From positions 34,991-98,990 of IMG/VR virus record IMGVR_UViG_3300008259_000020: a DNA stretch of 64,000 nt; one strand, written 5' to 3'. Source of the stretch: a virus (Duplodnaviria > Heunggongvirae > Uroviricota > Caudoviricetes). A program made the translations under genes and the position numbers. Shown here piece by piece: positions 15,223 through 64,000 of this stretch; within the stretch, counting starts at the first letter, position 1, and the number at the start of each line of letters is the position of its first letter. The notes beneath the pieces were generated by a model. It did not search any database. It had not been told where the DNA came from and saw nothing but the letters and a program-made list of their open reading frames with translations.

Positions 15223-15283
15223 AACATTCCCTTTCTAATATTTATAGGTATTTTTTATAATCTTAATGTAACTAAATACATAT

Positions 15284-24010: not shown

Positions 24011-24012
24011 TT

Positions 24013-24408: not shown

Positions 24409-24423
24409 ATAGTATTTATTATT

Positions 24424-26266: not shown

Positions 26267-26312
26267 TTTTAAGTTTGTAGTGATTATTAAATTCACTATG
26301 TAGACAATTTAA

Positions 26313-26388
26313 TGGTGCCGGTAGAGAGATTCGAACTCCCCACCTGATGATTACTAATCAACTGCTCTACCAAATGAGCTATACCGGC
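26313..26388 (-). tRNA. tRNA, anticodon ambiguous (loop TTAGTAA, formally AGU; self-complementary TGATTA/TAATCA)
   Basis: Acceptor GCCGGTA/TACCGGC, D-arm GCTCATTTGGTAGAGC, T-arm GGGAGTTCGAATCTCTC and CCA. The anticodon arm GTTGA-TTAGTAA-TCATC has a T:T mismatch. Confidence 0.55.
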
Positions 26389-27092: not shown

Positions 27093-27183
27093 ATTTTATT
27101 TATCCCTCATATAGATCTTCGTAATCAATATCGTCATCGTCTTCTAACCAATCGGTATCGGACGAAGTTTGATCAACAGTTTA

Positions 27184-27260
27184 ATGGTCGGAGTGACAGG
27201 ATTTGAACCCACGACATCTTGGTCCCAAACCAAGCGCTCTACCAAACTGAGCTACACTCC
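27184..27260 (-). tRNA. tRNA-Pro (UGG)
   Basis: Acceptor CGGAGTG/CACTCCG, loop TTTGGGA, T-loop TTCAAAT, CCA. Confidence 0.75.
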
Positions 27261-27266
27261 GATATA

Positions 27267-27342
27267 CTGGCTGGGAAGGGTGGATTCGAACCACCAACCA
27301 ACGGATTCAAAGTCCGGTACTCTACCAATTGAGCTACTTCCC
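27267..27342 (-). tRNA. tRNA-Gln (UUG)
   Basis: Acceptor TGGGAAG/CTTCCCA, anticodon arm CCGGA-CTTTGAA-TCCGT, T-arm GGTGGTTCGAATCCACC, CCA. Confidence 0.8.
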
Positions 27343-27348
27343 AACATT

Positions 27349-27431
27349 TTGGTGCGGATAGAGGGACTCGAACCCCCACGCTTACGCACTAGTTCCTAAG
27401 ACTAGCGTGGCTACCATTACACCATATCCGC
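27349..27431 (-). tRNA. tRNA-Leu (UAG), type II
   Basis: Acceptor GCGGATA/TATCCGC, anticodon arm CTAGT-CTTAGGA-ACTAG, long variable arm, T-arm GGGGGTTCGAGTCCCTC, CCA. Confidence 0.8.
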
Positions 27432-27435
27432 ATTA

Positions 27436-27511
27436 ATGGTGCCCCCAGCAGGACTTGAACCCGCGACCCCCTGATTACAAATCAGGTGCTCTACCAGCTG
27501 AGCTATAAGGG
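27436..27511 (-). tRNA. tRNA-Thr (UGU)
   Basis: Acceptor GCCCTTA/TGGGGGC, anticodon arm CCTGA-TTTGTAA-TCAGG, T-arm GCGGGTTCAAGTCCTGC, CCA. Confidence 0.8.
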
Positions 27512-27521
27512 CAAAAACTTT

Positions 27522-27595
27522 TTGGAGCGGGTAACGAGATTCGAACTCGTGACAAGAGCTTGGAAGGCTCGCATGTTACCGCTACACCATACCCG
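27522..27595 (-). tRNA. tRNA-Gly (UCC)
   Basis: Acceptor GCGGGTA/TACCCGC, loop CTTCCAA, T-arm ACGAGTTCGAATCTCGT, CCA. Confidence 0.75.
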
Positions 27596-27602
27596 CATTA
27601 TA

Positions 27603-27678
27603 TTGGCGACCTGTACCGGGATCGAACCGGTGTTCTTCTGCGTGACAGGCAGACGTATTAACCACTTTACCAACAGGC
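27603..27678 (-). tRNA. tRNA-Asp (GUC)
   Basis: Perfect acceptor GGCCTGT/ACAGGTC, anticodon arm TCTGC-CTGTCAC-GCAGA, T-arm ACCGGTTCGATCCCGGT, CCA. Confidence 0.85.
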
Positions 27679-27869
27679 CAAAAGCATCACACACGGCTTA
27701 CAAGTTCCGTCCCACCACTATGTGAAAGGTGTGATGCAACACTGTATACTACGCCGTTCCAAACCAACATCTAGTGTTGATATGCTATTTAAAGCCACGC
27801 ACTGCTATTTCAAACAGTTACTCACGATGCTATGCTTACGCTACTAGGAGGTTCACAGTGTGTTTATTA

Positions 27870-27957
27870 TGGCGGAAGCGGTGAGATTCGAACTCACGGT
27901 ACCTTGCGGTACGCTGGTTTTCAAGACCAGAGCCATCAACCACTCGGCCACACTTCC
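27870..27957 (-). tRNA. tRNA-Ser (UGA), type II
   Basis: Acceptor GGAAGTG/CGCTTCC, anticodon arm CTGGT-CTTGAAA-ACCAG, long variable arm CGTACCGCAAGGTACC, T-arm GTGAGTTCGAATCTCAC, CCA. Confidence 0.85.
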
Positions 27958-27964
27958 GTATATT

Positions 27965-28040
27965 TGGCACAGGAGCAAGGACTTGAACCCTGGACATTCG
28001 GTTTTGGAGACCGACGCTCTACCAACTGAGCTACACCTGC
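27965..28040 (-). tRNA. tRNA-Trp (CCA)
   Basis: D-arm GCTCAGTTGGTAGAGC, anticodon arm TCGGT-CTCCAAA-ACCGA, T-arm CAGGGTTCAAGTCCTTG. The acceptor has one T:T mismatch. Confidence 0.7.
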
Positions 28041-28046
28041 ATATAT

Positions 28047-28121
28047 TGGTGCGGAATGAGAGGGTCGAACTCCCGACAACCTCGGTGTAAACGAGGGGCT
28101 CTACCACTGAGCTAATTCCGC
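28047..28121 (-). tRNA. tRNA-Val (UAC)
   Basis: Acceptor GCGGAAT/ATTCCGC, anticodon arm CCTCG-TTTACAC-CGAGG, T-arm GGGAGTTCGACCCTCTC, CCA. Confidence 0.85.
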
Positions 28122-28124
28122 ATA

Positions 28125-28340
28125 TCACTGTTTACCGCGTGACTAGAAAACTTGCCATCAAAGCGGGATTTGTTAATTGCTTGTTAATCTCTGGGCTTCC
28201 CCGTTAATCTTCAAGTTCTTAACTGGTCTCGGACTGCAACTTTGATACCGTGTTTACTGATTGTGCAGTACTGTTCAAGTTAAACAACTTACACAATGTT
28301 CAACGCGGCTTTTCTAGCCCCTCGGAAAACAGTGATTATA
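28125..28340. mobile_element. ~215-bp insertion-like element bounded by 12-bp terminal inverted repeats inside the tRNA array (MITE-like, or a structured RNA)
   Basis: ATATCACTGTTT at 28129-28140 pairs with AAACAGTGAT(T)ATAT at 28327-28341. Inner arms CTAGAAAAC and GCTTTTCTAG. No ORF, and it occupies the only long gap between tRNA-Val and tRNA-Ala. Confidence 0.35.
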
Positions 28341-28344
28341 TTAA

Positions 28345-28420
28345 TGGTGGACCCTGCCGGGATCGAACCGGCGACATTATGCTTGCAAAGCATACGCTCT
28401 CCCAACTGAGCTAAGAGCCC
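28345..28420 (-). tRNA. tRNA-Ala (UGC)
   Basis: Acceptor GGGCTCT/AGGGTCC, anticodon arm TATGC-TTTGCAA-GCATA, T-arm GCCGGTTCGATCCCGGC, CCA. Confidence 0.85.
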
Positions 28421-28436
28421 GTATATTGGCGGAGCG

Positions 28437-28524
28437 TCTGGGAGTCGAACCCAGTCTACCCTTGCGGGTAGTGCAGATTAGCAATCTGGTGCCTTACCGT
28501 CCGGCCCACGCTCCGTATATTTGG
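28437..28524 (-). tRNA. tRNA-Ser (GCU), type II
   Basis: Acceptor GGAGCGT/ACGCTCC, anticodon arm CAGAT-TGCTAAT-ATCTG, long variable arm, T-arm CTGGGTTCGACTCCCAG, CCA. Confidence 0.8.
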
Positions 28525-28531
28525 CTCCTCG

Positions 28532-28607
28532 TGCTGGGCTCGAACCAGCGACACTTTGATTAACAGTCAAATACTCTACCAACTGAGCTAACGAGGAACA
28601 CTAACTC
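28532..28607 (-). tRNA. tRNA-Asn (GUU)
   Basis: Acceptor TCCTCGT/ACGAGGA, anticodon arm TTTGA-CTGTTAA-TCAAA, T-arm GCTGGTTCGAGCCCAGC, CCA. Confidence 0.85.
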
Positions 28608-40551: not shown

Positions 40552-40627
40552 TGGAGCTCCCGGAAGGATTCGAACCCTCGACCACCACGTTCGAAGCGTG
40601 GCACTCTGACCGCTGAGTTACGGAAGC
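40552..40627 (-). tRNA. tRNA-Arg (UCG)
   Basis: Acceptor GCTTCCG/CGGGAGC, anticodon arm CCACG-CTTCGAA-CGTGG, T-arm GAGGGTTCGAATCCTTC, CCA. Confidence 0.8.
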
Positions 40628-40639
40628 GTAGTATTTATT

Positions 40640-40715
40640 TGGTGCCCCCGGCAGGAGTCGAACCCACAACCTAGGGAGTAGAAATCCCTTGCTCTTCCAG
40701 TTGAGCTACGAAGGC
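40640..40715 (-). tRNA. tRNA-Arg (UCU)
   Basis: Acceptor GCCTTCG/CGGGGGC, anticodon arm AGGGA-TTTCTAC-TCCCT, T-loop TTCGACT, CCA. Confidence 0.8.
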
Positions 40716-40736
40716 TAAATTTCTGACAACTGACAA

Positions 40737-40806
40737 AGTGCAAAGGGACTCGAACCCTTGTCTCCGACTCCACGCCGGCGTCCTATCCTCTAGACGATAC
40801 ACACGA
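40737..40806 (-). ncRNA. degenerate tRNA-like element (Glu-type D-arm, good T-arm, no acceptor pairing, no CCA)
   Basis: TCGTCTAGAGGATAGGACG D-arm (compare E. coli tRNA-Glu), T-arm AAGGGTTCGAGTCCCTT, no foldable anticodon stem and no 3' complement. Confidence 0.3.
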
Positions 40807-41081
40807 TCATTGCAGCACTTTTCTATATCTCGACAACGACATCGAAGTTACTGCAACAAAAGGTCAGTTGCCACGGTGGTTGCCGCCACCTATTCTTTAT
40901 CTCTTATTTATTTCTTGTGTATACTATACATGATCTTTTCACGCATGTCAACGCATATACAGCACCAGCAGCTTATATGTTTAGTTTTCTTGCCACGCAT
41001 GTTGACGTTTGCCGAGGCGGCGCGGTGGGGCGGGCCGATGATCTGCTGGAACAGTTTATCTCGAGAAACACTGAACTCAGC

Positions 41082-41600
41082 CTATTCTAATTCGTCTTCG
41101 AATGGGTATCTTCTCACTGCTAGCAATTTTCTAACAGGATATGCACTAAAGTTAACACTGTTATCTTGATTTCCACCAAGCACCAAATAGTATTCTTGAC
41201 CATTGTGATAGGTTGAAGTTACAAAGAATCCAACATGACCTTTCCAATTGGCATTGCCACGCTTAAACACAACAACATCACCTGATTCTGGTTCGTCTAC
41301 TTCTACGCCCCAATCAAGAAAACTTCTTGCCAGTAGAGGATGTTCTGCATATTCATCAGACCCAGGTAATCCAGTTTCTGCAAGCACTGCATTTACAAAT
41401 GCAGCACACCATTCAGTGGCAACTGGATCAACACCGATAAAATCTTTTATTTCTGCTCTATGACTCTTTTCACTCCACCCTAGTTTTTCTGTTGCAGCAA
41501 CCAATGGTTCTGGCGGTGTCGGTGAAGTAGTAAACAATTGAATTTTTGCACAAGCAGATACTGATAGTAACAGTACTGTTAGTAACATAGCCCTCATCAT
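41082..41600 (-). CDS. secreted CHAP/NlpC-P60-type cysteine peptidase (candidate endolysin or cell-wall hydrolase)
   Basis: Signal peptide MMRAMLLTVLLLSVSACA. Catalytic-type Cys in TEWCAAFVNAVL and His in GHVGFF. A TATAAATA late-promoter-like motif sits just upstream. Confidence 0.5.
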   Translation of the reverse strand: MMRAMLLTVLLLSVSACAKIQLFTTSPTPPEPLVAATEKLGWSEKSHRAEIKDFIGVDPVATEWCAAFVNAVLAETGLPGSDEYAEHPLLARSFLDWGVEVDEPESGDVVVFKRGNANWKGHVGFFVTSTYHNGQEYYLVLGGNQDNSVNFSAYPVRKLLAVRRYPFEDELE

Positions 41601-41648
41601 AAAAATATTTATAGAATAGGTCTAGATAGAAATAGTACAGTTTAACTT

Positions 41649-41724
41649 TGGCACTCCCGGCAGGACTCGAACCTGCAACAATCACCTTCGTAGGGTGGCG
41701 CTCTTCCAGTTGAGCTACGGAAGT
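41649..41724 (-). tRNA. tRNA-Arg (ACG)
   Basis: Acceptor ACTTCCG/CGGGAGT, loop CTACGAA, T-arm GCAGGTTCGAGTCCTGC, CCA. Confidence 0.75.
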
Positions 41725-41730
41725 ATCGTT

Positions 41731-41805
41731 TGGTACCGTGTATAGGATTTGAACCTATTCCGACGCAGTCACAGTGCGGTATGCTACCCTTACACCAAGC
41801 ACGGC
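41731..41805 (-). tRNA. tRNA-His (GUG)
   Basis: Loop CTGTGAC, T-arm ATAGGTTCAAATCCTAT, CCA. The acceptor has one terminal mismatch. Confidence 0.65.
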
Positions 41806-41812
41806 ATTATTC

Positions 41813-41887
41813 TGGTTGCCCCTACTAGATTTGAACTAGTGACCTATCCCTTATCAGGGGATTGCTCTACCACTGAGCTAAGAGGCA
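41813..41887 (-). tRNA. tRNA-Ile (GAU)
   Basis: Acceptor TGCCTCT/AGGGGCA, anticodon arm ATCCC-CTGATAA-GGGAT, T-arm ACTAGTTCAAATCTAGT, CCA. Confidence 0.8.
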
Positions 41888-41988
41888 ATATTCATTGTTT
41901 AGAAGATACACTGACCAATACCATTTCTGGTCCGATAGGTTTATTTTATGTGGCGGCCTAAATGCCACTCAGTGTATCATCAAACCAA

Positions 41989-42064
41989 TGGTGAACCGGG
42001 TGGGATTCGAACCCACGTACTCCGATTAAAAGTCGGGTGCTAAAACCACCTCAGCTACCGGTCC
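41989..42064 (-). tRNA. tRNA-Lys (UUU)
   Basis: Acceptor GGACCGG/CCGGTTC, loop CTTTTAA, T-arm GTGGGTTCGAATCCCAC, CCA. Confidence 0.75.
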
Positions 42065-42123
42065 ACGTTTCGTTTGTCGCTTTCTTCTTTGTTACGTTTT
42101 CGTTTCATTTTTGTTCCTTGAAT

Positions 42124-42201
42124 TGGTGTACCGGGTGGGAGTTGAACCCACGACCTTCGGATTAAGAGTCCGCGGCTCTAACCTGGCTGAGCTACCGGTG
42201 C
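42124..42201 (-). tRNA. tRNA-Lys (CUU)
   Basis: Anticodon arm GCGGA-CTCTTAA-TCCGA, T-arm GTGGGTTCAACTCCCAC, CCA, long D-loop. Confidence 0.75.
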
Positions 42202-42220
42202 ATTAATAGTTGTATGTTTG

Positions 42221-42664
42221 TTAGTTACACCACGACTGCTTTTTGTCGCCGTAGTATTCTCTAGCATAACCTTGTTCAATAAGCATCTGTGTTAGGCTCT
42301 TACCGTCGATAAGAACATCACCTAGCACTCTGCCGCCGAACTTGTCCCACTCATAAAATACAATTTGAGTAGTCTTGGCTTTTGCAACTAAATCTTTTGT
42401 AAATTTACTTGCAGCATCACCCATGTCGCCTTCTTTTTTACATTCTGCTCTGCCACCTTTTTCAGGTGTATCTACGCCCCATACACGAAGTGATAGTTTC
42501 TTCGGAAGTGGATCTAGCAAGAACTTTGCTTCAAATTCAACTGTATCACCATCTACTACACGTAGAATTTTTAAGTCGTGTGCTACACCAGTTGGCTTTT
42601 TTACTTCAGCAAATGCAGTGGATGCAGCAACAATCAGTGCTACAGTTAAAAGTATTTTTTTCAT
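42221..42664 (-). CDS. secreted staphylococcal-nuclease (SNase/thermonuclease) homolog
   Basis: Signal peptide MKKILLTVALIVAASTAFA. ILRVVDGDTVEF and RVWGVDTPEK match the SNase Ca-site and active-site boxes. Confidence 0.7.
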   Translation of the reverse strand: MKKILLTVALIVAASTAFAEVKKPTGVAHDLKILRVVDGDTVEFEAKFLLDPLPKKLSLRVWGVDTPEKGGRAECKKEGDMGDAASKFTKDLVAKAKTTQIVFYEWDKFGGRVLGDVLIDGKSLTQMLIEQGYAREYYGDKKQSWCN

Positions 42665-42709
42665 TATGTTCTCCTAAATACTAGAATATTTATAACAAAA
42701 AAACAATTA

Positions 42710-42785
<76 letters not shown>

Positions 42786-42791
42786 ATATTT

Positions 42792-42876
42792 TGGTGGGAG
42801 AGGAGGGAATCGAACCCGTCCGTGCGTTGCCGCGATGGAGTTACAGTCCACTGCCTCACCTTGAGGCGTCTCTCCC
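42792..42876 (-). tRNA. tRNA-Tyr (GUA), type II (bacterial-type long variable arm)
   Basis: Acceptor GGGAGAG/CTCTCCC, loop CTGTAAC, long variable arm, T-loop TTCGATT, CCA. Confidence 0.8.
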
Positions 42877-42882
42877 TTATTT

Positions 42883-42959
42883 TGGTAGGACATACGGGTT
42901 TCGAACCCGTTTCTCCGCCTTGAAAGGGCGGCGACCTTCGCCAAGAAGTCCAATGTCCC
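42883..42959 (-). tRNA. tRNA-Glu (UUC)
   Basis: Acceptor GGGACAT/ATGTCCT, anticodon arm CCGCC-CTTTCAA-GGCGG, T-arm ACGGGTTCGAAACCCGT, CCA. Confidence 0.8.
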
Positions 42960-42965
42960 ATAGTT

Positions 42966-43040
42966 TGGTGATGTAGGCTGGATTCGAACCAGCAACCTAC
43001 GGCGTATGAGACCGTTGCACTACCGTTGTGCTACCACATC
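42966..43040 (-). tRNA. tRNA with CAU anticodon (Met or Ile2/lysidine)
   Basis: Acceptor GATGTGG/CTACATC, anticodon arm ACGGT-CTCATAC-GCCGT, T-arm GCTGGTTCGAATCCAGC, CCA. Confidence 0.8.
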
Positions 43041-43046
43041 ATTGTT

Positions 43047-43130
43047 TGGAGGTCGGTATGTGAATCGAACACATTACTTTGCAGTGCTATGGAGTTGCAG
43101 TCCATCCCCTTACCATCCGGGCCACCGACC
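43047..43130 (-). tRNA. tRNA-Cys (GCA)-like with an atypical 14-nt extra (variable) region
   Basis: Perfect acceptor GGTCGGT/ACCGACC, anticodon arm ATGGA-CTGCAAC-TCCAT, then AGCACTGCAAAGTA before T-arm ATGTGTTCGATTCACAT, CCA. A long variable arm is not expected for Cys. Confidence 0.55.
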
Positions 43131-54787: not shown

Positions 54788-55003
54788 TTAAATTCTAAAC
54801 ATAATTCTGCCTTTGTCAAGATCGTATGGTGTCATTTCAATTTTAACACGATCACCTTGTACCAGGCGAATTTTGAACTGGCGCATTTTGCCTCCAGTAT
54901 AACAGGTTACTCTATGCCCGTTTTCTAATTCAACACGAAATGTTTGATTGGGCAGTACCTCTATGATACTGCCTTCTAATTCTAATATATCTTCTTTAGC
55001 CAT
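54788..55003 (-). CDS. infA: translation initiation factor IF-1
   Basis: [71 protein letters not shown] is collinear with E. coli IF-1 ([69 protein letters not shown]). Confidence 0.85.
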
Positions 55004-55178
55004 TCTCTACCTTGGATATAGCGACGCCACCTTCTTCTAACACTTCAATCTTTAAGACGTCGCCTGGTTTCCAGCCCAACTGTTCAGCAATTTCCTGAGG
55101 AATATTCATTAACACGTTCTCAGGGTCGCCGTTGATGTCTTGAAACACTTCTTCAACTGAATACGTTTTATTTACCAA
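54996..55178 (-). CDS. AbrB/MazE (SpoVT-AbrB) fold small protein
   Basis: [33 protein letters not shown] fits the swapped-hairpin antitoxin/AbrB consensus. Overlaps infA by 8 nt. Confidence 0.45.
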
Positions 55179-55603: not shown

Positions 55604-55882
55604 ATGGATTTTTTATCACTTGTTGGCGAAGTAGGCTTTCCTATAGCCGGGGCATTAGCAGCCGGGGGATTTGTTTTCTTAACACTAAAGTTTATTCTAG
55701 CAGGAGTAACTGGAAGTGTTACAACTCTAAAGAATATTATTGCACAACTGGATAACCGTGTGCAAACTATGAATAATGATTTAGTTAAAATTGATGCATT
55801 ATTGAGTTATGCATTGAGTGTTAAGCCTAACATAGATCGTATTGCTGCAAACGAAGGTAAAAATGATGCGAGACGTGACTAA
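55604..55882 (+). CDS. single-pass membrane / coiled-coil protein, paralog A
   Basis: GFPIAGALAAGGFVFLTLKFILAGV TM segment, then a coiled coil. Paralog of the next gene (shared GFPI..A..G.FVF and L..RV..M.ND). Confidence 0.45.
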   Translation: MDFLSLVGEVGFPIAGALAAGGFVFLTLKFILAGVTGSVTTLKNIIAQLDNRVQTMNNDLVKIDALLSYALSVKPNIDRIAANEGKNDARRD

Positions 55883-56226
55883 TGGAATTTGACATAGCAG
55901 GTGCAATTAAAGACTTTGGATTTCCTATCATTGCAGCAATGGGCATGGGCTACTTTGTTTTCTTTATATGGAAATGGGTAACCGAAGAAATTGATCCAGT
56001 TGTTGGCGAAACAATGGGTACATTGATTAAACTTGTTGATCGTGTACGCATGTTAGACAACGACATGATACGTCTAAACAGCAAACTAACAATGGTATTA
56101 GAATATCGCCAGCACCTAGATATGTTACCACAGGATAAAAAAGATGATCTTGATGAAATAATCAACAAGTATCAAAGTCGAAGTCAAGTGTTCAACAGCA
56201 CTGGCAGAGAAGATAAAAAAAAATAA
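55882..56226 (+). CDS. single-pass membrane / coiled-coil protein, paralog B
   Basis: DFGFPIIAAMGMGYFVFFIWKWV TM segment, then LVDRVRMLDNDMIRLNSKL; ATGA-coupled to paralog A. Confidence 0.45.
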   Translation: MEFDIAGAIKDFGFPIIAAMGMGYFVFFIWKWVTEEIDPVVGETMGTLIKLVDRVRMLDNDMIRLNSKLTMVLEYRQHLDMLPQDKKDDLDEIINKYQSRSQVFNSTGREDKKK

Positions 56227-56243: not shown

Positions 56244-56579
56244 ATGGCAAGAACACCAAGAACACCAAAAACACTACAAGAAGACAGTCAGTTCAACAAG
56301 TTTGACACAGACGGCGACGGAGTTGTTTCCGACGACGAACTTGCAAAAGCAGAACGTATTGTTGACTTAGAAAACAAGGATCAAAAAGAAGACCAACTTA
56401 GAAGAATGGCATGGGTAGCCATGTTAAGTATGGTTGTCTTTACAGTACTATTGTTTTTACCTTTTATTGGAATTGAAAGATTGGCAGCATTGGATAATAT
56501 CCTAAGCATGTTCTACATTGCACAAGCAGGCGTAGTAGCATCATTCTTCGGATCCAGTGCTTATATGAGTCGTTCATAA
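56244..56579 (+). CDS. EF-hand calcium-binding membrane protein
   Basis: DTDGDGVVSDDE is a canonical 12-residue EF-hand loop (D1, D3, D5, G6, E12), followed by two TM segments. Confidence 0.5.
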   Translation: MARTPRTPKTLQEDSQFNKFDTDGDGVVSDDELAKAERIVDLENKDQKEDQLRRMAWVAMLSMVVFTVLLFLPFIGIERLAALDNILSMFYIAQAGVVASFFGSSAYMSRS

Positions 56580-56600
56580 CGAACGTTTTATTTGAATAAT

Positions 56601-56640
56601 AACAAGGAGCCTGTGGGCTCCTTGTCTGCTTTTTTATTTT
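56601..56640 (+). terminator. rho-independent terminator
   Basis: CAAGGAGCCtgtgGGCTCCTTG followed by tctgcttttttatttt. Confidence 0.7.
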
Positions 56641-56688
56641 GTATCTGATATATATGTATAAGACATAGAACAAAAAGGCAAAACTAGC

Positions 56689-56928
56689 ATGATTTGGATA
56701 GATTATAATATAACTCAAGCCGGCGGCAATTTTAGAGTCGAAGGTGAATGGCCTGGAGAAGTTATGGGGCTCGACAGACAGGGCAATCCCGGAAACAAGA
56801 AACGTCCGTTGTATCAACCCGGTGATGTTTTTATAGTTAACAAGGATGGGTGGCTTGTTAAACAAGAAGAATTGACATCACTGATGTTAACATATGAGAG
56901 TAAAAAATCTACTTTGTCAGGGCAATAA
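56689..56928 (+). CDS. hypothetical protein (79 aa)
   Basis: ORF after the terminator; its end overlaps the convergent cyclase gene. Confidence 0.3.
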   Translation: MIWIDYNITQAGGNFRVEGEWPGEVMGLDRQGNPGNKKRPLYQPGDVFIVNKDGWLVKQEELTSLMLTYESKKSTLSGQ

Positions 56929-58951
56929 ACACGCCATTCCAATCTGCTGGCAATGTTTGCGTTTTCATGTATTCACAACGTTCAATCCACATATCGTAGT
57001 ATTTTTCCATTTTGCCGTCAAATGCTCTGCGAATTAAATTACACTGTTCTATTGCTTCATCAAACTGTTTCATACGATATAGTTTGTGCATTTGATCATG
57101 ATGTTTTTTACTGGTTTTCCATGTTGGTTTAACATCGTCTAATACAGTATAGATAGCAACACCTACAGTTTTACCTTTAACTGCTAAGTCATCTACTTTG
57201 AGGAAGAAGAATTCGTCTTTGCACTGTTCTACTGTAGCGCCACCCACGAGTAATAAGCAGCCGTATTCTTTACATTTTGATTCGATTCTTGCGGCGGTGC
57301 TGACTGCGTCTCCAAGTACGTCGTAACTGTGACGTTTGGTTGACCCCATTTCTCCGATGTATCCGAGACCTGTGTTGATTCCGGCGCCCATGCCAACTGG
57401 TGGTCTTCCTTGGGGTATGATGACTGTTTCATTAAAATTCTCTACTGCTCGTAACATTTTTAAACCAGTAGCAACTGCTGTCTTTGCATGTTCAGGATCG
57501 TCTACTGGTGCATTGTGTATATGCATACTTGCATCACCGATATATTTAATAATCATACCGTTTGCATCTAGCACAGGCTGTGTGATAGCATCCATGTATC
57601 CATTCATTATTTTAGTAAGTCCTGCAACATCGTCGCCGAAACTTTCACCTAATGGTGTAAAGCCACGTAAATCGCTAAACAGTATGCTTACTTCTTTCTT
57701 CATGCCTTTCTTGACAAGATCTGGGTTTGTTTGCAATAACTTAACTACGGCAGGTGATGCATATCCTTCGAACTGTTTCTTGATTGCTTGCTTTTGTAAG
57801 AACTCACTTACAAATTTGATTACATAACGTATAATACCTACAAGCAATAGAAACGCCGCAGGTAAAAATCCATCAATCAAGAAGTTGTAGGTAGCAAAGG
57901 CATAGATGCTACCACCGATTGACCCACCTACAAGTATTACAAAAATGCCAATGCCCGCATAAGTCCAACGTGCAGCAACTATTAGTGCTAATCCGGCAAG
58001 TACAAATGCTAATAATTCGGCACCTGGTGACCATGCAGGGCGTTCTATGTTACTTGCATTAAACACTGTGCCTAACATCATAGCCTGTAGTTCATGTGGC
58101 CACACGCCGCCTTTGGCTGTTGCAATTGGTTGTGTAATGCCAGCCGCAGTAGGACCTACAAATACTATACCTCCGGCAAAGTCTGCAGGTAGTTCTGCTG
58201 CACTGTGACTGCTAAAGCCTTGACTCCAGTCTAACCATACTCTACCAAGTCCATCAGTTTGTAGTACACCGTATTGCGGAATTCGTAATTTGTCAACTCC
58301 CAACGGTGATAATTTGATTTGGAAACTAGGATCCCCTGCTAGAACTCTAAGCACTTCCATAGTAACGTTAGGGTATAGTATTCCTCCACTTTCTAGTACT
58401 AGCGGAGCACGTCTGACAACTCCATCAATTTCTGGAAAGGTATTGATAATTCCTGACCCAACTGCTGCATTTTCAATGGCAGGCACGTTTGCTGTGATGC
58501 CAGGCACGGCAGGGATAAGATCAATAAAGTCACTATTAATGATACTAGCACCAGGGTTGATTGGTTCATTTTTATTTTCCTCAGTTCCTAACATTGTAAC
58601 TACAACAGGATAATTACCCATAGTAGTTGATAGTATCCTGTCTTGTCCTGCTCTGTCTGTTTCGCTCATCAACACGTTAAACACAACTAGTCCTGCGCCA
58701 CGTGCATATAGATCCTCTATTAGTTTAGCATAATCGCCTCTTGGCCAAGGCCACTGACCGCGAGCAGTAATACTTGCTTCATCTATATTAACTGTATAAA
58801 TGTTATTTTCTACAGGTGCTTGATTTACTATCAACTGATCAAAATATCGTAAACGTAGACTTTCCAAAAAATCAGGGTTACTGAACTGTAACCAGCCCAA
58901 CAACCCTAAAATTACAATGCTCCAAACAGGTGATAATAACAGTTTTTTCAC
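56909..58951 (-). CDS. CHASE2 sensor-domain class III adenylate/guanylate cyclase
   Basis: N-terminal signal/TM, then a periplasmic CHASE2-like region, three TM segments, then the cyclase core ILFSDLRGFTPLGESFGDD...IKYIGDASM...GINTGLGYIGEMGS...VLGDAVSTAARIES (metal-binding Asp and transition-state residues in the canonical CHD arrangement). Confidence 0.7.
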   Translation of the reverse strand: MKKLLLSPVWSIVILGLLGWLQFSNPDFLESLRLRYFDQLIVNQAPVENNIYTVNIDEASITARGQWPWPRGDYAKLIEDLYARGAGLVVFNVLMSETDRAGQDRILSTTMGNYPVVVTMLGTEENKNEPINPGASIINSDFIDLIPAVPGITANVPAIENAAVGSGIINTFPEIDGVVRRAPLVLESGGILYPNVTMEVLRVLAGDPSFQIKLSPLGVDKLRIPQYGVLQTDGLGRVWLDWSQGFSSHSAAELPADFAGGIVFVGPTAAGITQPIATAKGGVWPHELQAMMLGTVFNASNIERPAWSPGAELLAFVLAGLALIVAARWTYAGIGIFVILVGGSIGGSIYAFATYNFLIDGFLPAAFLLLVGIIRYVIKFVSEFLQKQAIKKQFEGYASPAVVKLLQTNPDLVKKGMKKEVSILFSDLRGFTPLGESFGDDVAGLTKIMNGYMDAITQPVLDANGMIIKYIGDASMHIHNAPVDDPEHAKTAVATGLKMLRAVENFNETVIIPQGRPPVGMGAGINTGLGYIGEMGSTKRHSYDVLGDAVSTAARIESKCKEYGCLLLVGGATVEQCKDEFFFLKVDDLAVKGKTVGVAIYTVLDDVKPTWKTSKKHHDQMHKLYRMKQFDEAIEQCNLIRRAFDGKMEKYYDMWIERCEYMKTQTLPADWNGVFIALTK

Positions 58952-59199
58952 AATTTTTTTCCTAACAGTTTTGCTTTTAGTGCATCCATTTCTTGAGATT
59001 TATTTTTTACCGGGTGTTTTTCTTCCGCCACCACATACTGGGATTGTGCTTTAGAATTTTTATAGGGTTCTTGGTCCCATCCATTGCGGCTTCTAATAGC
59101 GGCGATGCGGGCCTGAATTTCAGCAACTCTAACAGAGATTTCTGATGCTCCGGGGTTTTCATTTGCTTCTTTCAAGAATAGATTTCTAAACCAGTTCAT
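58948..59199 (-). CDS. small hypothetical protein (83 aa)
   Basis: ATGA-coupled to the cyclase; TATAAA-rich late-promoter-like sequence upstream. Confidence 0.35.
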   Translation of the reverse strand: MNWFRNLFLKEANENPGASEISVRVAEIQARIAAIRSRNGWDQEPYKNSKAQSQYVVAEEKHPVKNKSQEMDALKAKLLGKKL

Positions 59200-59285
59200 T
59201 TAGTATATTTATTTTATAAACTCTATAATTTTAAATTATAGTTAGTTAGAAAGATAGGCTCCGAAGAGCCTATCTTGTTTTTACA

Positions 59286-61295
59286 TTAGAACTTTAGTGA
59301 AAGACCAGCACTGATTGATGTGCTGCTTGATGTTTCTGTTCCAAACTGTGTTGCTGAAACATTTACATTTGCTTTTCCTATGTCTTTGTTAACGCCAATC
59401 CCTAGCTTTGTGCTACCATCAGTGTTATAAATTGCACTCAAATTTACCAATCCTACATCTACGTCAGCACCAATAGTTGCATAGCCGTAGGTTTCTTCAG
59501 AACCGGTGTTGACCAGTTTGGCTTGTATGCTTCCTATTTCGCCATACCCATCAGTTGATTTTTTGCCAACAGTATACCCTAATATTGGATGTACAACATT
59601 TGTATTTGGACGTAGTTCAATGCTTGCCCAATTATCAGTTGCCGATGTTAATCCGTGTGCAGAAAAGTATGGACTAAAAAGTACACAGCAAGGACCAATA
59701 GTTCTACTGTACGCTAGATCAGTTGACGCAGTGTTAGCAGTACCGGTGATTGTAAATTTTTCCATTTCTTTGCCAACTGTTATACCAATTTTAGTTGTTC
59801 TTGACGCACCAGTTGAATTGTTACCTGACAACTCCGATGACATGCTAACAAGGCCGCCGCCTATTATTAAACCACTGTCAGTTGTGGTATTTACACCTAG
59901 TGAGAAGTACTGTGTATCAGCAGTGTATCCGGTGTCTGTTTCACTGCTGATGCGTCCGGCGTTAACACCAGAACCGAATCCAATGTTATGTGCTAGATTT
60001 AGGTCTAACATTGCATTTATTTGGTCCATACGTCCTATAAATGGTAGAGGGAAAGTAATTGCTGTAGTGATGTCATTGCGTAATACTGTTGTGACTGTTG
60101 GTGTTCCATCTGTTACAACAACACTGCTGTCACTGTAAGTATCTGTAGTACGCACAAATGATGTGGTAGTTACATCAACTGGTGTTGTTGTAGTTGTTGT
60201 GGTTTCACGAGCAATTGTTTGCACGCCATCTGCTACACTGCTGTCGTGTGTTGTAATACTTGCTGTTAGCACAGGAAGTGTTGTACTCGGTGCTTCGGTT
60301 GTTGAAGTTATTGTAGCAGTTGTAGTAGAAGTAATAGTAGGTGTGCCGCCACCGCTTGCTGCATCAGTTGCACTTCCCACGTCGGTTAGTGTCCATCCAG
60401 TTGGTAACACGCCGGGTGTTCCGCCGCCAGCACCACCGTCAATTGCAGAATCTGCTGCATCAAACGCACTTGGTCCAAATATATAAGCATAACTTGCTGT
60501 GAGAATATCGCCTGCGCTAACACTTAACCAATTCCACGAAAGACCAATTGTATCATCTGCATTACAATATAGTACGCCTGCGCCGCAAGATGCATCTGCA
60601 TTTATGTATGAATCTGCTTCTGAGCTCCAACTGTTGATGCCTGCTGCTACGTTTGTATCTGTTGAATATAAACCTAGTGCATAACGTGAAACAGTTGCTT
60701 CGCTGAATGCAACGTTAGTTGATGGGATACCTGAGTAACCTAATACGTTGTCTGTGCTTGAGCTATCGCCGGCCATACCTTGGCTATCCGGATCGATAAA
60801 TTTACCAAACCAAACACTTGATGCTGCACTACCAGCAACAATTGTTGTTGTCACATCAACAAATGATGCAGTTGTACCCAATGTAAATGTATTTGTAACA
60901 TTCCATGTTGAACTGCCAAATGCTCTATCGCCGCTCCATGTTAACGTGTTAGTACCGTCAGTTAATCCGTCTGCATCAACAAATGATGTAGAACCGGTAT
61001 TGTTGTTTGCAGCATTGACGCCGTCAACCTTAAGAGAGAATCCGTCAAACGGTGCTCCTGGTGTTAGATAATCAAAGCCAGCGTTGAATGTTCCTGTTCC
61101 AGTTGGATCGAATAGTAGGCCAGGACTGGTTCCGCCACCGCTTCCAAATGTACCGGAGTTTTTGTTTACACCAGCCTTAACCCAATTATTTTCAAGTACA
61201 CCCATGCTGGATGTGCCATTAATGCTACTGGTATCAGCAAATGCTGTTGTGCTTAGTAAAAGAGCCAGCACAGTGCCCCCTATTATTCGTCTCAT
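59286..61295 (-). CDS. large secreted Thr/Ser/Gly-rich protein with a C-terminal outer-membrane beta-barrel signature (terminal Phe)
   Basis: Signal peptide MRRIIGGTVLALLLSTTAFA, poly-Thr linker TTTTTTTPVDVTTT, C-terminal alternating hydrophobic pattern ending ...SAGLSLKF. Confidence 0.45.
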   Translation of the reverse strand: MRRIIGGTVLALLLSTTAFADTSSINGTSSMGVLENNWVKAGVNKNSGTFGSGGGTSPGLLFDPTGTGTFNAGFDYLTPGAPFDGFSLKVDGVNAANNNTGSTSFVDADGLTDGTNTLTWSGDRAFGSSTWNVTNTFTLGTTASFVDVTTTIVAGSAASSVWFGKFIDPDSQGMAGDSSSTDNVLGYSGIPSTNVAFSEATVSRYALGLYSTDTNVAAGINSWSSEADSYINADASCGAGVLYCNADDTIGLSWNWLSVSAGDILTASYAYIFGPSAFDAADSAIDGGAGGGTPGVLPTGWTLTDVGSATDAASGGGTPTITSTTTATITSTTEAPSTTLPVLTASITTHDSSVADGVQTIARETTTTTTTPVDVTTTSFVRTTDTYSDSSVVVTDGTPTVTTVLRNDITTAITFPLPFIGRMDQINAMLDLNLAHNIGFGSGVNAGRISSETDTGYTADTQYFSLGVNTTTDSGLIIGGGLVSMSSELSGNNSTGASRTTKIGITVGKEMEKFTITGTANTASTDLAYSRTIGPCCVLFSPYFSAHGLTSATDNWASIELRPNTNVVHPILGYTVGKKSTDGYGEIGSIQAKLVNTGSEETYGYATIGADVDVGLVNLSAIYNTDGSTKLGIGVNKDIGKANVNVSATQFGTETSSSTSISAGLSLKF

Positions 61296-61323
61296 TTTTT
61301 GCCCTCCATGAGATCTTGTTATG

Positions 61324-61674
61324 TTATTTAAGTTGTAGTTCTATTCCTAAAACCACGCCTATATTAGTTTCGTCGTTGTTTTTTTCAAAACCTGGCGCAA
61401 CAAAAAATCTTGCCTTTCCCATATCGTAAGTGCCTCTAGCATACGGAGTAATTGCACCAAGTTCTTCATAGCCTGTTGCTATAGTAAACTCGATACCTGT
61501 TTTTTCAGTTGGTTCTAGTCTATAACCTCCGTAAAGACTAATCCTTTCTTCGCTGTTGTAGTATGCGCCTGCGATAAAATTATTTTCTTGTAATCTTAAA
61601 TGCGGATGTAGACTATTGTAATCTCCCTCCATTCCTAAATGACTGCTTAATGCCATTGCCCATATTAAATCCAT
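61324..61674 (-). CDS. hypothetical protein (116 aa) in the curli-like cluster
   Basis: ORF between the FecR-like and large OM proteins; possible accessory factor. Confidence 0.3.
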   Translation of the reverse strand: MDLIWAMALSSHLGMEGDYNSLHPHLRLQENNFIAGAYYNSEERISLYGGYRLEPTEKTGIEFTIATGYEELGAITPYARGTYDMGKARFFVAPGFEKNNDETNIGVVLGIELQLK

Positions 61675-61677
61675 TTG

Positions 61678-62772
61678 TTACTCCTGTTGATTGATATTAA
61701 TTGTATTATTTCCTACACCTATCCTATATCCGTATATACTAAATCCATTTTGAACCACACCCAGTGTATACCCATATCCTTGACTTAACATTAAATCAAT
61801 CATATGAGAATTTTCGCTTCTTCTAAAAATATTATTAGGCGGAACCTCGTCATAAAATATTCCTGTTTCAGGATCCAATCCTAAAAACTTTTCTTCAAAA
61901 AACGCAGTATTTTGTGTGTCTAGTTCGCTTAATAACTTTTGCATCACTTCTTTCATCACTGCTGTCAGTTGATCTACAAACACTTCGTTGAGATATGTGT
62001 TTGTATCCAAGTCTGTTACCCATATATTTTTAATACCCTCCACAAGCGGATCCTTGTCTAATTCATCAAAAGCCAAAAAGTCTATGTCTAGTAAATCAAC
62101 TGCTGGCTGTGCATCTTCTGCTGCTTCGTCATAAGGATCAACTCGTCTAACAATCAGCATACTACGAAGCATGTCTTCGGGCAGTTCTAATATTACAGGT
62201 GGTTTAGGTACCATACCGTTATGAGCAACCACTGTGGTCTGAAAGGCTTGATTCATTATAACTATACCTTCGTCTGTTTCAACAGTTATTTCGCCAACCA
62301 CGCACATGCCAGCAGTGTTGCAACTTGGCAACAGTGTAACCATACTGCCGCCGATTTCGTCTACAATCATCATAAAGTCTGTTCCACGTACACCGATAGT
62401 TGCACTTGGTGTTTCGATATTAACATTTTGTCTGCTGTTCTTAGCAATAGCGCCACTGGCATAACGAACAGCACCTAGCGTTGCTCGCATACTCAATTCA
62501 CCAGTACCACTGTTAGGATCATACACAAACTCATCAATGACCATGCGGCTGTGTTCAGTAACATCAACACGAGTATCGTCCGCAAACTGTAATTGCATAC
62601 GACCGTTGGCAGTAGCAATTGTATCTTGCATTTCGAGTCCTACACCTTGTTCTCCGAGTATCTCTGTGGACTCACGCTTAACAATACCACTGCCATCGAT
62701 GGTTGCTATTTCGCCTACATTGGCATATGCGGTATTAGCTATCAACAGCAATGGTATAATATATTTCAGCAT
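61678..62772 (-). CDS. periplasmic FecR-domain protein with a C-terminal curlin-like motif
   Basis: Signal peptide MLKYIIPLLLIANTAYA. FecR-type beta-sandwich pattern GEIATIDGSGIVKRE...MQDTIATANGRMQLQFADDTRVDVTEHSRMVID. C-terminus VQNGFSIYGYRIGVGNNTININQQE. Confidence 0.4.
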   Translation of the reverse strand: MLKYIIPLLLIANTAYANVGEIATIDGSGIVKRESTEILGEQGVGLEMQDTIATANGRMQLQFADDTRVDVTEHSRMVIDEFVYDPNSGTGELSMRATLGAVRYASGAIAKNSRQNVNIETPSATIGVRGTDFMMIVDEIGGSMVTLLPSCNTAGMCVVGEITVETDEGIVIMNQAFQTTVVAHNGMVPKPPVILELPEDMLRSMLIVRRVDPYDEAAEDAQPAVDLLDIDFLAFDELDKDPLVEGIKNIWVTDLDTNTYLNEVFVDQLTAVMKEVMQKLLSELDTQNTAFFEEKFLGLDPETGIFYDEVPPNNIFRRSENSHMIDLMLSQGYGYTLGVVQNGFSIYGYRIGVGNNTININQQE

Positions 62773-63464
62773 TAATCAGTCTGTGTAATTGTTACAGTCC
62801 CGTCGTTGGCCGTTGATGTTACATTAACGGTCTTGTCCGTTAATCCGCTTTGTGTTATGTTGATATTATTTCCGCCACCTGTTAAATCATAGGTAATACT
62901 GTGTCCGTTTACACCGCCTGCATCATCTTGATCTATGGTAACAGTGTTGCCGCTGGCTGCTAAACTATTGTCAATGGTAAATGTAACATCAGCATTGGTT
63001 GCATCCAAGTTGGCTAAAATAACGTTGCCGTCGCCGTCGATGGTAAATTCTGCTACAAGGTTATCTGTAACTTTATTTTCACCAATATATACGCTAAAGT
63101 CGTTGCTGTTTCCATTAACTGTAATGTCAACTGTTACAATTTCGCAGTTTGCGCCGTTTGTTATATCGCAGGTTAAATCAACTGTGTTGCTGTCCCCGTT
63201 GAATATCCAGTCACCTGTATATGTATTGCCCTTAATAGTTGCTGCTATAACGTTATAATCGCCGTTTTGTGTAATATCAAATGTCATATCATCACCTGAA
63301 AGCAAGGCAGGTGCAGTTGTTGACAGGTCGCCGATCTTGTTGCCAGAACCGGTTTGACTAACAGTCAATGCAAGGTTGTCCCCTATTTGTTGTATGTAGA
63401 TTTCGTTAGCCAAGGCCGCAGAACTAACTAGTACAAACAAGGCCCCTATTATTATTTTTTTCAT
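62772..63464 (-). CDS. curlin-repeat (CsgA/CsgB-like) secreted beta-solenoid protein
   Basis: Signal peptide MKKIIIGALFVLVSSAALA. IQQIGDNLALTVSQTGSGNKIG fits the curlin repeat Q-x-G-x-x-N-x-A-x-x-x-Q-x-G-x-G-N, followed by many NG.(N/S)N..(I/V).(Q/D) repeats. Confidence 0.5.
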   Translation of the reverse strand: MKKIIIGALFVLVSSAALANEIYIQQIGDNLALTVSQTGSGNKIGDLSTTAPALLSGDDMTFDITQNGDYNVIAATIKGNTYTGDWIFNGDSNTVDLTCDITNGANCEIVTVDITVNGNSNDFSVYIGENKVTDNLVAEFTIDGDGNVILANLDATNADVTFTIDNSLAASGNTVTIDQDDAGGVNGHSITYDLTGGGNNINITQSGLTDKTVNVTSTANDGTVTITQTD

Positions 63465-63476
63465 TTTTTATTGCCC

Positions 63477-64000
63477 TCATTTAAAACTCCACAGCTCTCT
63501 ACGAGCTCCTTCGTATATTAGTTCTATTATTCCTGCCTCTATTGCTGCCCTCACAGCATAGTTGGTAGGTTCGTTGACACTAAATCCACTCTCGATTTCC
63601 AGTGCCTTGGTGCTCATGTCTAAGAACTTAAATACATCTGCACCAGTTTTGTGACTAGCTATAGTTTTCTCAGTAGCCACACTTATTAGCACTCTTCCTG
63701 TGCTAACACTTACTAAACGCATTGCAACTGTTACAGTATCTACTCTGTACTCCGATCCTGCGCCTATTCCAAAGTAACGTGCTCCGGTTCCTCCTGTTGC
63801 TACGTTACTGTCATATCCCACTATTCCGCCTTCTAGTATCAACCCTGCAAATTGCATAGGATTCAATGGATCAGGATTGTCTAAATAATTTTCTCTTGTT
63901 TGACGTATAAGTTGACGTTCTGCAATTACATTGTCCATGCCTACACGTTCTACAACTTCAAACCAACTGCCGTTGCCTACCTGCATCAGTGCATCTATTA
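63477..64000 (-). CDS. csgG: CsgG-family curli secretion channel lipoprotein, partial (N-terminus beyond the right edge)
   Basis: EGGIVGYDSNVATGGTGARYFGIGAGSEYRVDTVTVAMRLVSVSTGRVLISVATEKTI...NEPTNYAVRAAIEAGIIELIYEGARRELW is collinear with E. coli CsgG EGSIIGYESNVKSGGVGARYFGIGADTQYQLDQIAVNLRVVNVSTGEILSSVNTSKTI...NEPVMLCLMSAIETGVIFLINDGIDRGLW. Confidence 0.8.
   Translation of the reverse strand, partial: IDALMQVGNGSWFEVVERVGMDNVIAERQLIRQTRENYLDNPDPLNPMQFAGLILEGGIVGYDSNVATGGTGARYFGIGAGSEYRVDTVTVAMRLVSVSTGRVLISVATEKTIASHKTGADVFKFLDMSTKALEIESGFSVNEPTNYAVRAAIEAGIIELIYEGARRELWSFK

Follow-up and report, generated by a model that had tools for sequence, protein, structure and literature searches.

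A curli-type gene cluster with a FecR/CHASE2 cyclase pair and an autotransporter in a large, tRNA-rich, myovirus-like phage

We analyzed a 64,000-nucleotide stretch of DNA from a virus of the Caudoviricetes (IMG/VR record IMGVR_UViG_3300008259_000020, positions 34,991 to 98,990; hereafter the window), which carries at its right-hand end, between 56.9 and 64.0 kb, a minus-strand run of genes for a CsgG outer-membrane channel, a curlin-like repeat protein, a FecR-domain protein, proteins of 116, 669 and 83 amino acids (aa) and a class III nucleotide cyclase. Judged by its gene content and order, this run is a copy of the type VIII (curli-type) cluster known from marine phages of SAR11 and OM43, residing here in a different marine phage that is large, tRNA-rich and myovirus-like. 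What is particular to this copy is the filling of one slot of the cluster by the 116-aa protein and an autotransporter, an inverted block of small genes, and a carrier unlike the pelagiphages. An earlier note on this DNA, made from the letters alone, knew of no described phage-borne CsgG system; the premise was mistaken, as the clusters of phages HTVC008M and Melnitz are annotated and are discussed in PMC7029224, PMC9004378 and PMC9599517. On balance we favor the view that the phage remodels the surface of the infected cell by means of a curli-type fiber, an autotransporter and FecR/CHASE2 signaling, wherein export, polymerization, cyclase activity and the contact between FecR and CHASE2 are steps that we infer.

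The members of the run are as follows:

63477..64000, minus strand: CsgG outer-membrane channel lipoprotein, C-terminal part, with its 5' end lost at the window edge
62772..63464, minus strand: curlin-repeat protein of 230 aa, predicted to be secreted, from a weak Curlin_rpt match and the family profile
61678..62772, minus strand: FecR-domain protein of 364 aa, predicted periplasmic (PF04773)
61324..61674, minus strand: conserved small protein of 116 aa, beta-rich, with 45 homologues
59286..61295, minus strand: type Va autotransporter of 669 aa, from its predicted structure
58948..59199, minus strand: small protein of 83 aa without a signal peptide, from the list of open reading frames (ORFs)
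56909..58951, minus strand: CHASE2 plus class III cyclase protein of 680 aa, a predicted inner-membrane sensor, from Pfam

The CsgG, repeat-protein, FecR and 669-aa genes all lie at the coordinates claimed for them in the earlier note, co-directional on the minus strand, and the tight spacing it described is borne out by gaps of -4 to +86 nucleotides (nt) along the cluster. The module is nevertheless longer than was thought, as the note missed its leftward continuation to the cyclase and to four genes on the plus strand.

A Pfam search recovers the CsgG family (PF03783) with the windowed fragment of ~173-174 codons at E = 1.6e-41 (142.4 bits against a cut-off of 20.8), in keeping with the initial assignment. 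The complete gene, encoding 259 aa, is present on a near-identical contig, L003 (8517-9296), where it matches the same family at 1.4e-50 (172 bits) and the structures of E. coli CsgG at 1.4e-50. Just beyond the window this complete protein displays a lipobox, LTGC (...LFLTGCVS...), and the Asn-Phe of the constriction loop (...PADNFSS..., against PASNFS in E. coli); the phage protein does not share the Tyr that E. coli CsgG has at its constriction. Directly upstream of CsgG lies a gene for a 147-aa CsgF (L003 8077-8520; PF10614, E = 1.2e-10), whose single support is the Pfam model, as a sequence comparison with the solved CsgF structures returned no match. The note had proposed looking further rightward for CsgE- or CsgF-like genes and phage genes: CsgF and phage genes are found there, and Pfam shows no CsgE. 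Outside this group of clusters, CsgG has a match of 45% identity in a 1,499-bp record under the name Salmonella phage S.Kent 1-2-1, probably a piece of csgG from the host, and distant CsgG-like genes (28-29% identity), mostly annotated as hypothetical, are found in five jumbo phages of Brevundimonas (348-357 kb).

The gene following CsgG encodes a 230-aa protein with a signal-like N-terminus, for which we found 122 homologues. Curlin_rpt (PF07012) is matched by 34 of 48 aligned homologues (E<=0.01; best 3.8e-9), and in this 48-homologue alignment the N- and C-terminal repeats have invariant Q, G and N residues. The top two PDB matches of the family profile are both curlins, namely 8c50 (1.2e-3) and E. 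coli CsgA (8enq, 0.026). The protein contains four Q-x-G and eight G-x-x-N motifs, against 0.74 and 2.84 in shuffled sequences, along with two conserved Cys and irregular middle repeats. An AlphaFold (AF2) model is all-beta with 16 strands (pLDDT 85, pTM 0.83), and a tentative assignment as a beta-solenoid is based on this model and the motifs. It is 42% identical to Melnitz gp101 and 35% to the 'CsgB' of HTVC008M. Its sequence thus suggests a divergent curlin-repeat protein that is likely to be the substrate of CsgG and the subunit of a fiber.

Searching the CsgG fragment by tblastn against 50,697 GenBank phage records retrieved HTVC008M (57% identity) and four isolates of the Methylophilales phage Melnitz (53%). 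The annotated order in both is CsgF, CsgG, curlin repeat, FecR, a second curlin or hypothetical protein, and an adenylate/guanylate cyclase, and dedicated PHROGs families already exist for the phage versions of CsgF, CsgG, FecR and the cyclase. Phage type VIII secretion genes were first reported by Zaragoza-Solas et al. in 2020, with the idea of 'sibling capture' (PMC7029224); Buchholz et al. in 2022 described Melnitz and proposed a pore or a role in lysis timing (PMC9004378); and Wittmers et al. in 2022 found the order HK-CsgF-CsgG-CsgA/B-FecR-second CsgA/B-adenylate cyclase in podo- and myo-pelagiphages, with alphaproteobacterial affinities, and reported its occurrence at all 65 GOV2.0 stations and expression of the phage curli genes in ocean metatranscriptomes (PMC9599517). 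Aggregation and superinfection exclusion, ideas of the kind raised in the earlier note, were already proposed in these papers; the reading of the locus as a curli-type phage cluster holds.

A scan of IMG/VR anchored on CsgG yielded at least 589 viral contigs, and components were counted in those 47 of the best 80 loci that had enough downstream DNA. FecR is present in all 47, the cyclase in 46, CsgF in 45, at least one curlin-like gene likewise in 45, and small membrane proteins of the 92/114-aa type discussed below in 40; a second curlin-like gene occurs in 15, the 116-aa protein in 11 and the autotransporter in six. There is therefore a constant core of CsgF, CsgG, one curlin-like gene, FecR and CHASE2 cyclase, combined with a slot of variable content that separates FecR from the cyclase, and the filling of this slot in the window, by the 116-aa gene and the autotransporter, is a minority type. 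One near-identical contig (L006, 11098 onward; NCBI GCA_031546225.1) is 100% identical through CsgF, CsgG, the curlin-like gene and FecR, and then continues, just after FecR, into unrelated genes (PAPS-reductase-like and others) without the 116-aa gene, the autotransporter or the cyclase. Either this phage is a recombinant variant or the assembly is broken at the variable slot.

The 364-aa protein matches FecR (PF04773) at 2e-10 (41.4 bits against a cut-off of 24) and phrog_37870 at 3.7e-97, so that its description as a periplasmic FecR-domain protein stands. Its N-terminus is hydrophobic, resembles a cleavable signal and leads straight into the FecR domain (residues 50-143). The protein is 44-46% identical to its homologues in HTVC008M and Melnitz, and bears a conserved C-terminal extension of 170 aa that is found at full length only in phage-derived copies. 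This C-terminus had been thought curlin-like, a proposal that we reject: there is no Curlin_rpt match at E<=0.1, and hhalign against the curlin family gives a probability of 8% and aligns a different region. We likewise rejected a role as anti-sigma regulator of iron-citrate transport, as the protein lacks the architecture of a cytoplasmic anti-sigma N-terminus plus transmembrane (TM) helix; none of the genes neighboring FecR has a Pfam match to a sigma factor or a TonB-dependent receptor.

The cyclase protein matches CHASE2 at 1.6e-37 (129.9 bits) and Guanylate_cyc at 1.1e-17 (64.6 bits), with a predicted topology of an N-terminal TM helix, a periplasmic CHASE2 domain, a TM bundle and a class III cyclase domain. 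Its top PDB matches are adenylate cyclases, and it retains both metal-binding Asp residues, the adenine-type Lys, the Thr and the Arg, making it likely, as far as residues can tell, that the protein is active as an adenylate cyclase. It is 50% identical to Melnitz gp104 and 35% to the HTVC008M protein. On contig L003, a population variant from a JGI assembly, the gene (13822-15735) has a 129-nt in-frame deletion of 43 codons in CHASE2, corresponding to ~58215-58343 of the window, and encodes 637 rather than 680 aa.

Using the FecR alignment, we scanned 185,579 species genomes and obtained 80 loci. On the true chromosomes among them (Myxococcota, Planctomycetia, Caulobacterales and others) the FecR-domain gene adjoins a full-length homologue of the CHASE2 cyclase with 29-35% identity; on no true bacterial chromosome among these best 80 loci does CsgG lie beside FecR, so that this sample holds no donor layout. 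In SAR11 single-cell genomes (L039, L063, L072-L074) a FecR-domain gene lies a few kb from a CHASE2 gene (31-33% and 22-24% identity, respectively), implying that the host lineage of the known curli phages owns a related sensor pair. The BiofilmReg operon of Burkholderia places the gene for a periplasmic FecR-domain protein next to that for a CHASE2 kinase (PMC5192318). The CHASE2 cyclases of Sinorhizobium meliloti drive expression of the FecR-domain gene smc02177 in a manner dependent on cyclic AMP (cAMP) and Clr (PMC5498481), and in the same organism these CHASE2 adenylate cyclases have NsrA, a barrel receptor of the outer membrane, upstream of them (PMC7529298); the FecR domain of E. coli contacts the outer-membrane protein FecA (stated in PMC5498481). 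From the signal-like N-terminus, the want of an anti-sigma architecture and the bacterial pairing, we read FecR and the CHASE2 cyclase as a cAMP pair for envelope sensing that became joined to a type VIII cluster, rather than as an iron regulator.

The 669-aa protein is predicted to comprise a signal peptide (1-20), a beta-supersandwich passenger (~30-290), Thr-rich long beta-hairpins (~320-415), a linker helix (425-437) and a 12-strand barrel (443-669) ending in a terminal Phe. Its structure model (pLDDT 78.8) retrieves autotransporter translocators as top hits in Foldseek, with NalP at 1.8e-8 followed by EstA, BrkA, EspP, Hbp and AIDA-I, and the passenger adopts a galactose-mutarotase-like supersandwich ahead of the hairpins. 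On this model the protein is a classical type Va autotransporter. Pfam returns no family for it at E<=0.1, including Autotransporter (PF03797), and one homologue (P0064) carries a precomputed PF03797 match. Such a protein would export itself through Sec and the barrel assembly machinery (BAM) and would not need CsgG; hence the earlier description of a Thr-rich outer-membrane protein with a terminal Phe is upheld and extended by the barrel, and its export by way of CsgG is not required by the architecture.

This autotransporter has more than 1500 metagenomic homologues and no match by tblastn in the 50,697 GenBank phage records; a text search of the open-access literature found no paper tying an autotransporter to phage curli clusters, and the three papers on these clusters do not mention one. 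We scanned IMG/VR with the autotransporter alignment and inspected the 10-kb flanks of 80 loci. CsgG, FecR or the cyclase lies within 10 kb in 59 of the 80 viral loci, with autotransporters 36-67% identical across the linked ones; its position is mostly between FecR and the cyclase, as here, and in several phages between CsgF and CsgG or upstream. This persistence of linkage through rearrangement argues for a functional tie. A 52%-identical homologue stands without any curli genes on a ~139 kb phage contig (L010/L011, 10001-11821), near a T4-type spanin and a lipase; next to it comes a counterpart of the 111-aa EF-hand/TM protein described below.

The 45 homologues of the 116-aa protein are all 107-127 aa long and none is Pfam-annotated. 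It has no clear signal peptide, no above-threshold Pfam match and no NCBIfam or PDB match, its weak matches being to OMP_b-brl (E = 0.038) and to the PagP-like phrog_3600 (7.8e-8). It occurs in 22 of the 80 autotransporter loci, in addition to its 11 CsgG loci.

Further elements within and beyond the run are:

59251..59276, minus strand: perfect 11-bp hairpin with a TTCG tetraloop, read directly, 10 nt past the autotransporter stop
55604..56226, plus strand: paralogous membrane/coiled-coil proteins of 92 and 114 aa, both phrog_18771
56244..56928, plus strand: a 111-aa EF-hand-like protein (EF-hand_5) with a hydrophobic C-terminal half and a 79-aa protein, with homologues near known clusters

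On the sense strand no U-run follows the hairpin, and a terminator scan, which overall performed at chance level, marks it on the opposite strand only; a TATAAT-like element occurs after it, upstream of the 83-aa gene. The hairpin may be an RNA 3'-end or stability element that splits the cluster into two transcription units. The sigma-70 promoter scan likewise gave results at chance level. The stop of the 83-aa gene and the start of the cyclase overlap by 4 nt, which suggests translational coupling; the 83-aa protein has no Pfam, PHROG or NCBIfam match, and a homologue with 42% identity holds the equivalent position in L009.

The 92- and 114-aa proteins match phrog_18771 at 8e-30 and 2e-29, and are 81% and 56% identical, respectively, to Melnitz gp97 and gp98, the two genes just upstream of CsgF. 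Such genes stand directly upstream of CsgF in other phages; in the window they are found past the cyclase, on the other strand. To judge by position they are probably those labelled 'HK' in PMC9599517, even though neither has a Pfam histidine-kinase match at E<=0.1; there is no holin-family match either. The 111-aa protein scores against EF-hand_5 at 1.6e-5, just under the cut-off; homologues of it and of the 79-aa protein are encoded close to the Melnitz and HTVC008M clusters, and the 79-aa protein occurs in 29 of the 80 autotransporter loci.

The carrier has 30 tRNA genes, an unusually high number for a phage, covering most amino acids, in two minus-strand arrays (23926-28597 and 40552-43130), and its PHROG matches include tail fiber, baseplate wedge, ATP-dependent DNA ligase, endonuclease and DNA methylase. 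GC content is ~0.40-0.42 and level across the cluster boundary. The exact FecR protein sequence occurs on at least 23 contigs; the six that were retrieved (L003-L008, from JGI, ENA and NCBI assemblies) are 99.8-100% identical to the window over shared sequence, and five keep the whole cluster while L006 diverges after FecR. The right flank (L003 1953-6467) encodes ribosomal protein S21, an IMPDH-like dehydrogenase, ClpS, heme oxygenase and a ferredoxin-dependent bilin reductase, the sister contigs of L003 also encode HSP20, and several of these right-flank genes match PHROG families; they are of types that marine phages typically carry. With phage genes on both sides, the cluster belongs to the phage, as had been assumed. 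The heme oxygenase and bilin reductase are pigment-pathway genes in a phage otherwise unlike a cyanophage.

When 56-64 kb and 1-25 kb of the window were compared by megablast with the same 50,697 phage records, nothing matched, indicating that there is no close sequenced relative, and informative matches came from protein-level searches only; one other gene that was compared has its nearest counterparts in Alishewanella phages and Sinorhizobium phage phiN3. Related clusters lie on contigs of 200-364 kb, which together with the 30 tRNA genes points to a large or jumbo myovirus. Elsewhere on the minus strand the window encodes a 71-aa IF-1-like protein (54788-55003; PF01176 eIF-1a on the identical contig gene), an overlapping 60-aa MazE/AbrB-like ORF (54996-55178; PF04014), an 1862-aa ORF with tail-fiber and baseplate-wedge PHROG matches (9256-14844) and a 1192-aa ORF without a PHROG match (2712-6290). 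The IF-1-like gene beside the tRNA arrays and the nearby S21 suggest an investment in translation. In the genome scan, six loci (L012-L016, L018) hold most or all of the cluster, all on contigs (short ones for the full clusters) binned into metagenome-assembled genomes (MAGs) labelled as Rhodobacteraceae, Pirellulales, Pelagibacter, Flavobacteriaceae and Luteolibacter. The one locus whose flanks were examined, L018, carries RegA, DNA ligase and endolysin; bacterial 'hosts' taken from such bins would be unreliable.

Drawing these observations together, we propose that infection would place the cluster proteins in the envelope of a host that possibly lacks curli genes of its own. A CsgF-capped CsgG would form an outer-membrane channel, through which the 230-aa subunit would pass unfolded and polymerize at the surface into a beta-solenoid fiber. 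The autotransporter would insert by way of the Sec and BAM machineries of the host and display its sugar-enzyme-like beta-sandwich on a Thr-rich stalk, as a second and independent surface adhesin or lectin. The FecR-domain protein and the CHASE2 cyclase would convert an envelope or extracellular cue into cAMP, rather than serve iron uptake. The net effect would be a remodeled cell surface, and its likely outcome aggregation or adhesion of the kind termed 'sibling capture', or the exclusion of other phages, with cAMP signaling tuning host physiology or timing.

Several results weigh against this proposal. The 230-aa protein itself matches Curlin_rpt over residues 20-39 only, at E = 0.0049 and 17.2 bits, under the 20.7 cut-off; the curlin-repeat claim of the earlier note is thus sustained at the level of the family and falls short for the individual protein. 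It also misses the NCBIfam equivalog cut-offs of CsgB (13.5 against 165 bits) and CsgA (12.7 against 160), and from its sequence it is not an orthologue of either. Foldseek of its model against the PDB returns nothing significant, with beta-helix neighbors at E >=0.07; the structure prediction that the earlier note had proposed as a test for a beta-solenoid thus gave an all-beta model and no significant fold match. The single curlin-like gene in this copy leaves no separate nucleator, and there is no Pfam match to CsgE, CsgC or CsgD among the cluster and flanking ORFs. Melnitz-infected cells showed no clumping by cytometry or transmission electron microscopy (PMC9004378). The catalytic Asn of the cyclase is Ser here, in Melnitz and in L009, and is Asn in HTVC008M and bacteria, so that cyclase activity may be reduced; the FecR-domain protein is probably the partner of the CHASE2 sensor, an assignment that has gene neighborhood as its sole basis. 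The T4 late-promoter consensus TATAAATA does not occur near the cluster and is at chance frequency across the window.

Among the other explanations, a host chromosome beside a prophage end, as the earlier note had considered, or a chimeric assembly might be suspected, given that the window stops inside CsgG and that cluster contigs are binned into MAGs of many taxa. The identical joins at 99.8-100% in six independent assemblies from JGI, ENA and NCBI, the phage-family genes on both sides, the level GC across the boundary and the occurrence of the cluster in the complete genomes of the isolated lytic phages HTVC008M and Melnitz tell against both; no integrase or attachment site is involved at the cluster, the L018 contig from a MAG carries phage genes, and none of the best 80 loci is a true chromosome with CsgG beside FecR. 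These points exclude both the prophage end and the chimera, and we assign the whole explanation a vanishingly small probability. It also appears highly improbable that the cyclase is the signal generator of a phage-carried, Pycsar-like cyclic-nucleotide immunity: its domain does match the PADLOC PycC models at 8.9e-16, but that match reflects only the generic class III cyclase fold, no effector (PycTM, PycTIR) or other PADLOC match is found among ten cluster proteins, and the Lys/Thr adenylate-type specificity residues along with CHASE2 and FecR fit bacterial signaling cyclases.

More serious, if still unlikely in our estimate, is the notion that CsgG with or without CsgF is simply a gated outer-membrane pore that times lysis (Buchholz et al.) or lets in larger solutes or cofactors (Zaragoza-Solas et al.; Wittmers et al.), in which case no fiber would be built from the repeat protein. 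The missing CsgE gate, CsgC and CsgD, the Melnitz-infected cultures without clumping (PMC9004378) and the two small membrane/coiled-coil proteins that accompany the cluster would fit it, and L018 offers slight further support, in that its slot holds a 135-aa ORF (8932-9339) with a weak holin match (phrog_3427, 1.6e-4) and a strongly matching endolysin gene (13599-14375) follows ~1.8 kb past the cyclase. It sits poorly with a signal-peptide curlin-repeat protein after CsgG in 45 of 47 clusters and with Q, G and N positions invariant in 48 homologues, a combination that would be hard to maintain if the protein were unused; further, CsgF is near-universal (45 of 47) and the 92- and 114-aa proteins match no holin family. 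An outer-membrane pore alone cannot depolarize the inner membrane, which also counts against this explanation. We give a similarly low rank to a cluster that is mainly a trans-envelope sensor, in which the surface proteins (the autotransporter, the curlin polymer and perhaps the 116-aa protein) would signal through FecR to the CHASE2 cyclase, with cAMP reprogramming the host or timing lysis. FecR (47 of 47) and the cyclase (46 of 47) are as constant as any part and are paired in bacteria without CsgG, the slot between them is filled by proteins that are exported or sit in the outer membrane (the autotransporter, the 116-aa protein or a second curlin), and precedents exist in the FecA-FecR contact (PMC5498481) and in the Sinorhizobium NsrA-CyaK/CyaD pathway, where an outer-membrane receptor is upstream of CHASE2 cyclases (PMC7529298). 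A sensor by itself leaves the near-universal CsgG, CsgF and curlin-repeat protein unexplained; moreover, the autotransporter is present in only six of the 47 CsgG-anchored clusters and in some phages lies between CsgF and CsgG rather than by FecR, and none of the cluster proteins was recognized as a cAMP receptor. As a more speculative reading, for which we hold out little more than an outside chance, type VIII fiber, type Va autotransporter and FecR/CHASE2 cyclase could make up a composite envelope device, a trans-envelope sensor with the surface-exposed proteins at its outer end that reads the cell surface or neighboring cells, with cAMP adjusting the host or the timing of lysis; the slot between FecR and the cyclase would then be a swappable 'antenna' and the autotransporter family a new phage-specific component.

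A phage-borne CsgG system is in itself already known and no new discovery. With at least 589 IMG/VR contigs bearing a related CsgG, phage curli clusters are widespread in ocean viromes, and the hosts of the known curli phages, SAR11 and OM43, lack curli genes. The present copy extends the range of the cluster past the pelagiphage/Melnitz group into large tRNA-rich phages, its FecR makes more sense as a periplasmic partner for the CHASE2 cyclase than as a regulator of iron uptake, and its variable slot includes a previously unremarked family of phage autotransporters. If fibers or adhesins are indeed displayed on infected cells, the cluster would matter for how the most abundant marine bacteria aggregate and form particles, and for competition between their phages.

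In comparison with HTVC008M, Melnitz and pelagipodophages of the HTVC023P type, the cluster has the same gene set and core order, and CsgE, CsgC and CsgD are absent from both. It differs from HTVC008M and Melnitz in that the place of the second curlin is taken by the 116-aa protein and the autotransporter, neither of which has a tblastn match in the cluster regions of those phages, in that the block of small membrane-protein genes is turned around and placed past the cyclase, and in its carrier, with 30 tRNA genes and ~40% GC. With the enterobacterial curli of E. coli and Salmonella it shares the CsgG homologue, CsgF and a substrate with Q/N/G-rich imperfect repeats and a Sec signal. As the earlier note recognized, its gene order is unlike the csgBAC/csgDEFG layout: the phage cluster lacks CsgE, CsgC and CsgD, forms one co-directional run rather than two divergent operons, and has linked genes for FecR, a CHASE2 cyclase and an autotransporter. 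The FecR-CHASE2 pairs of bacteria (Burkholderia; CyaD1, CyaD2 and CyaK of S. meliloti) have the same arrangement of a signal-peptide FecR protein beside a membrane protein with periplasmic CHASE2, and the bacterial FecR-CHASE2 loci have the same class III cyclase output with 29-35% full-length identity, but no CsgG, CsgF or curlin genes nearby. Finally, in contrast to the type Va autotransporters NalP, AIDA-I, Hbp, BrkA and EstA, the phage protein has a predicted passenger that is not a beta-helix, and it is phage-encoded and genetically linked to a type VIII system.

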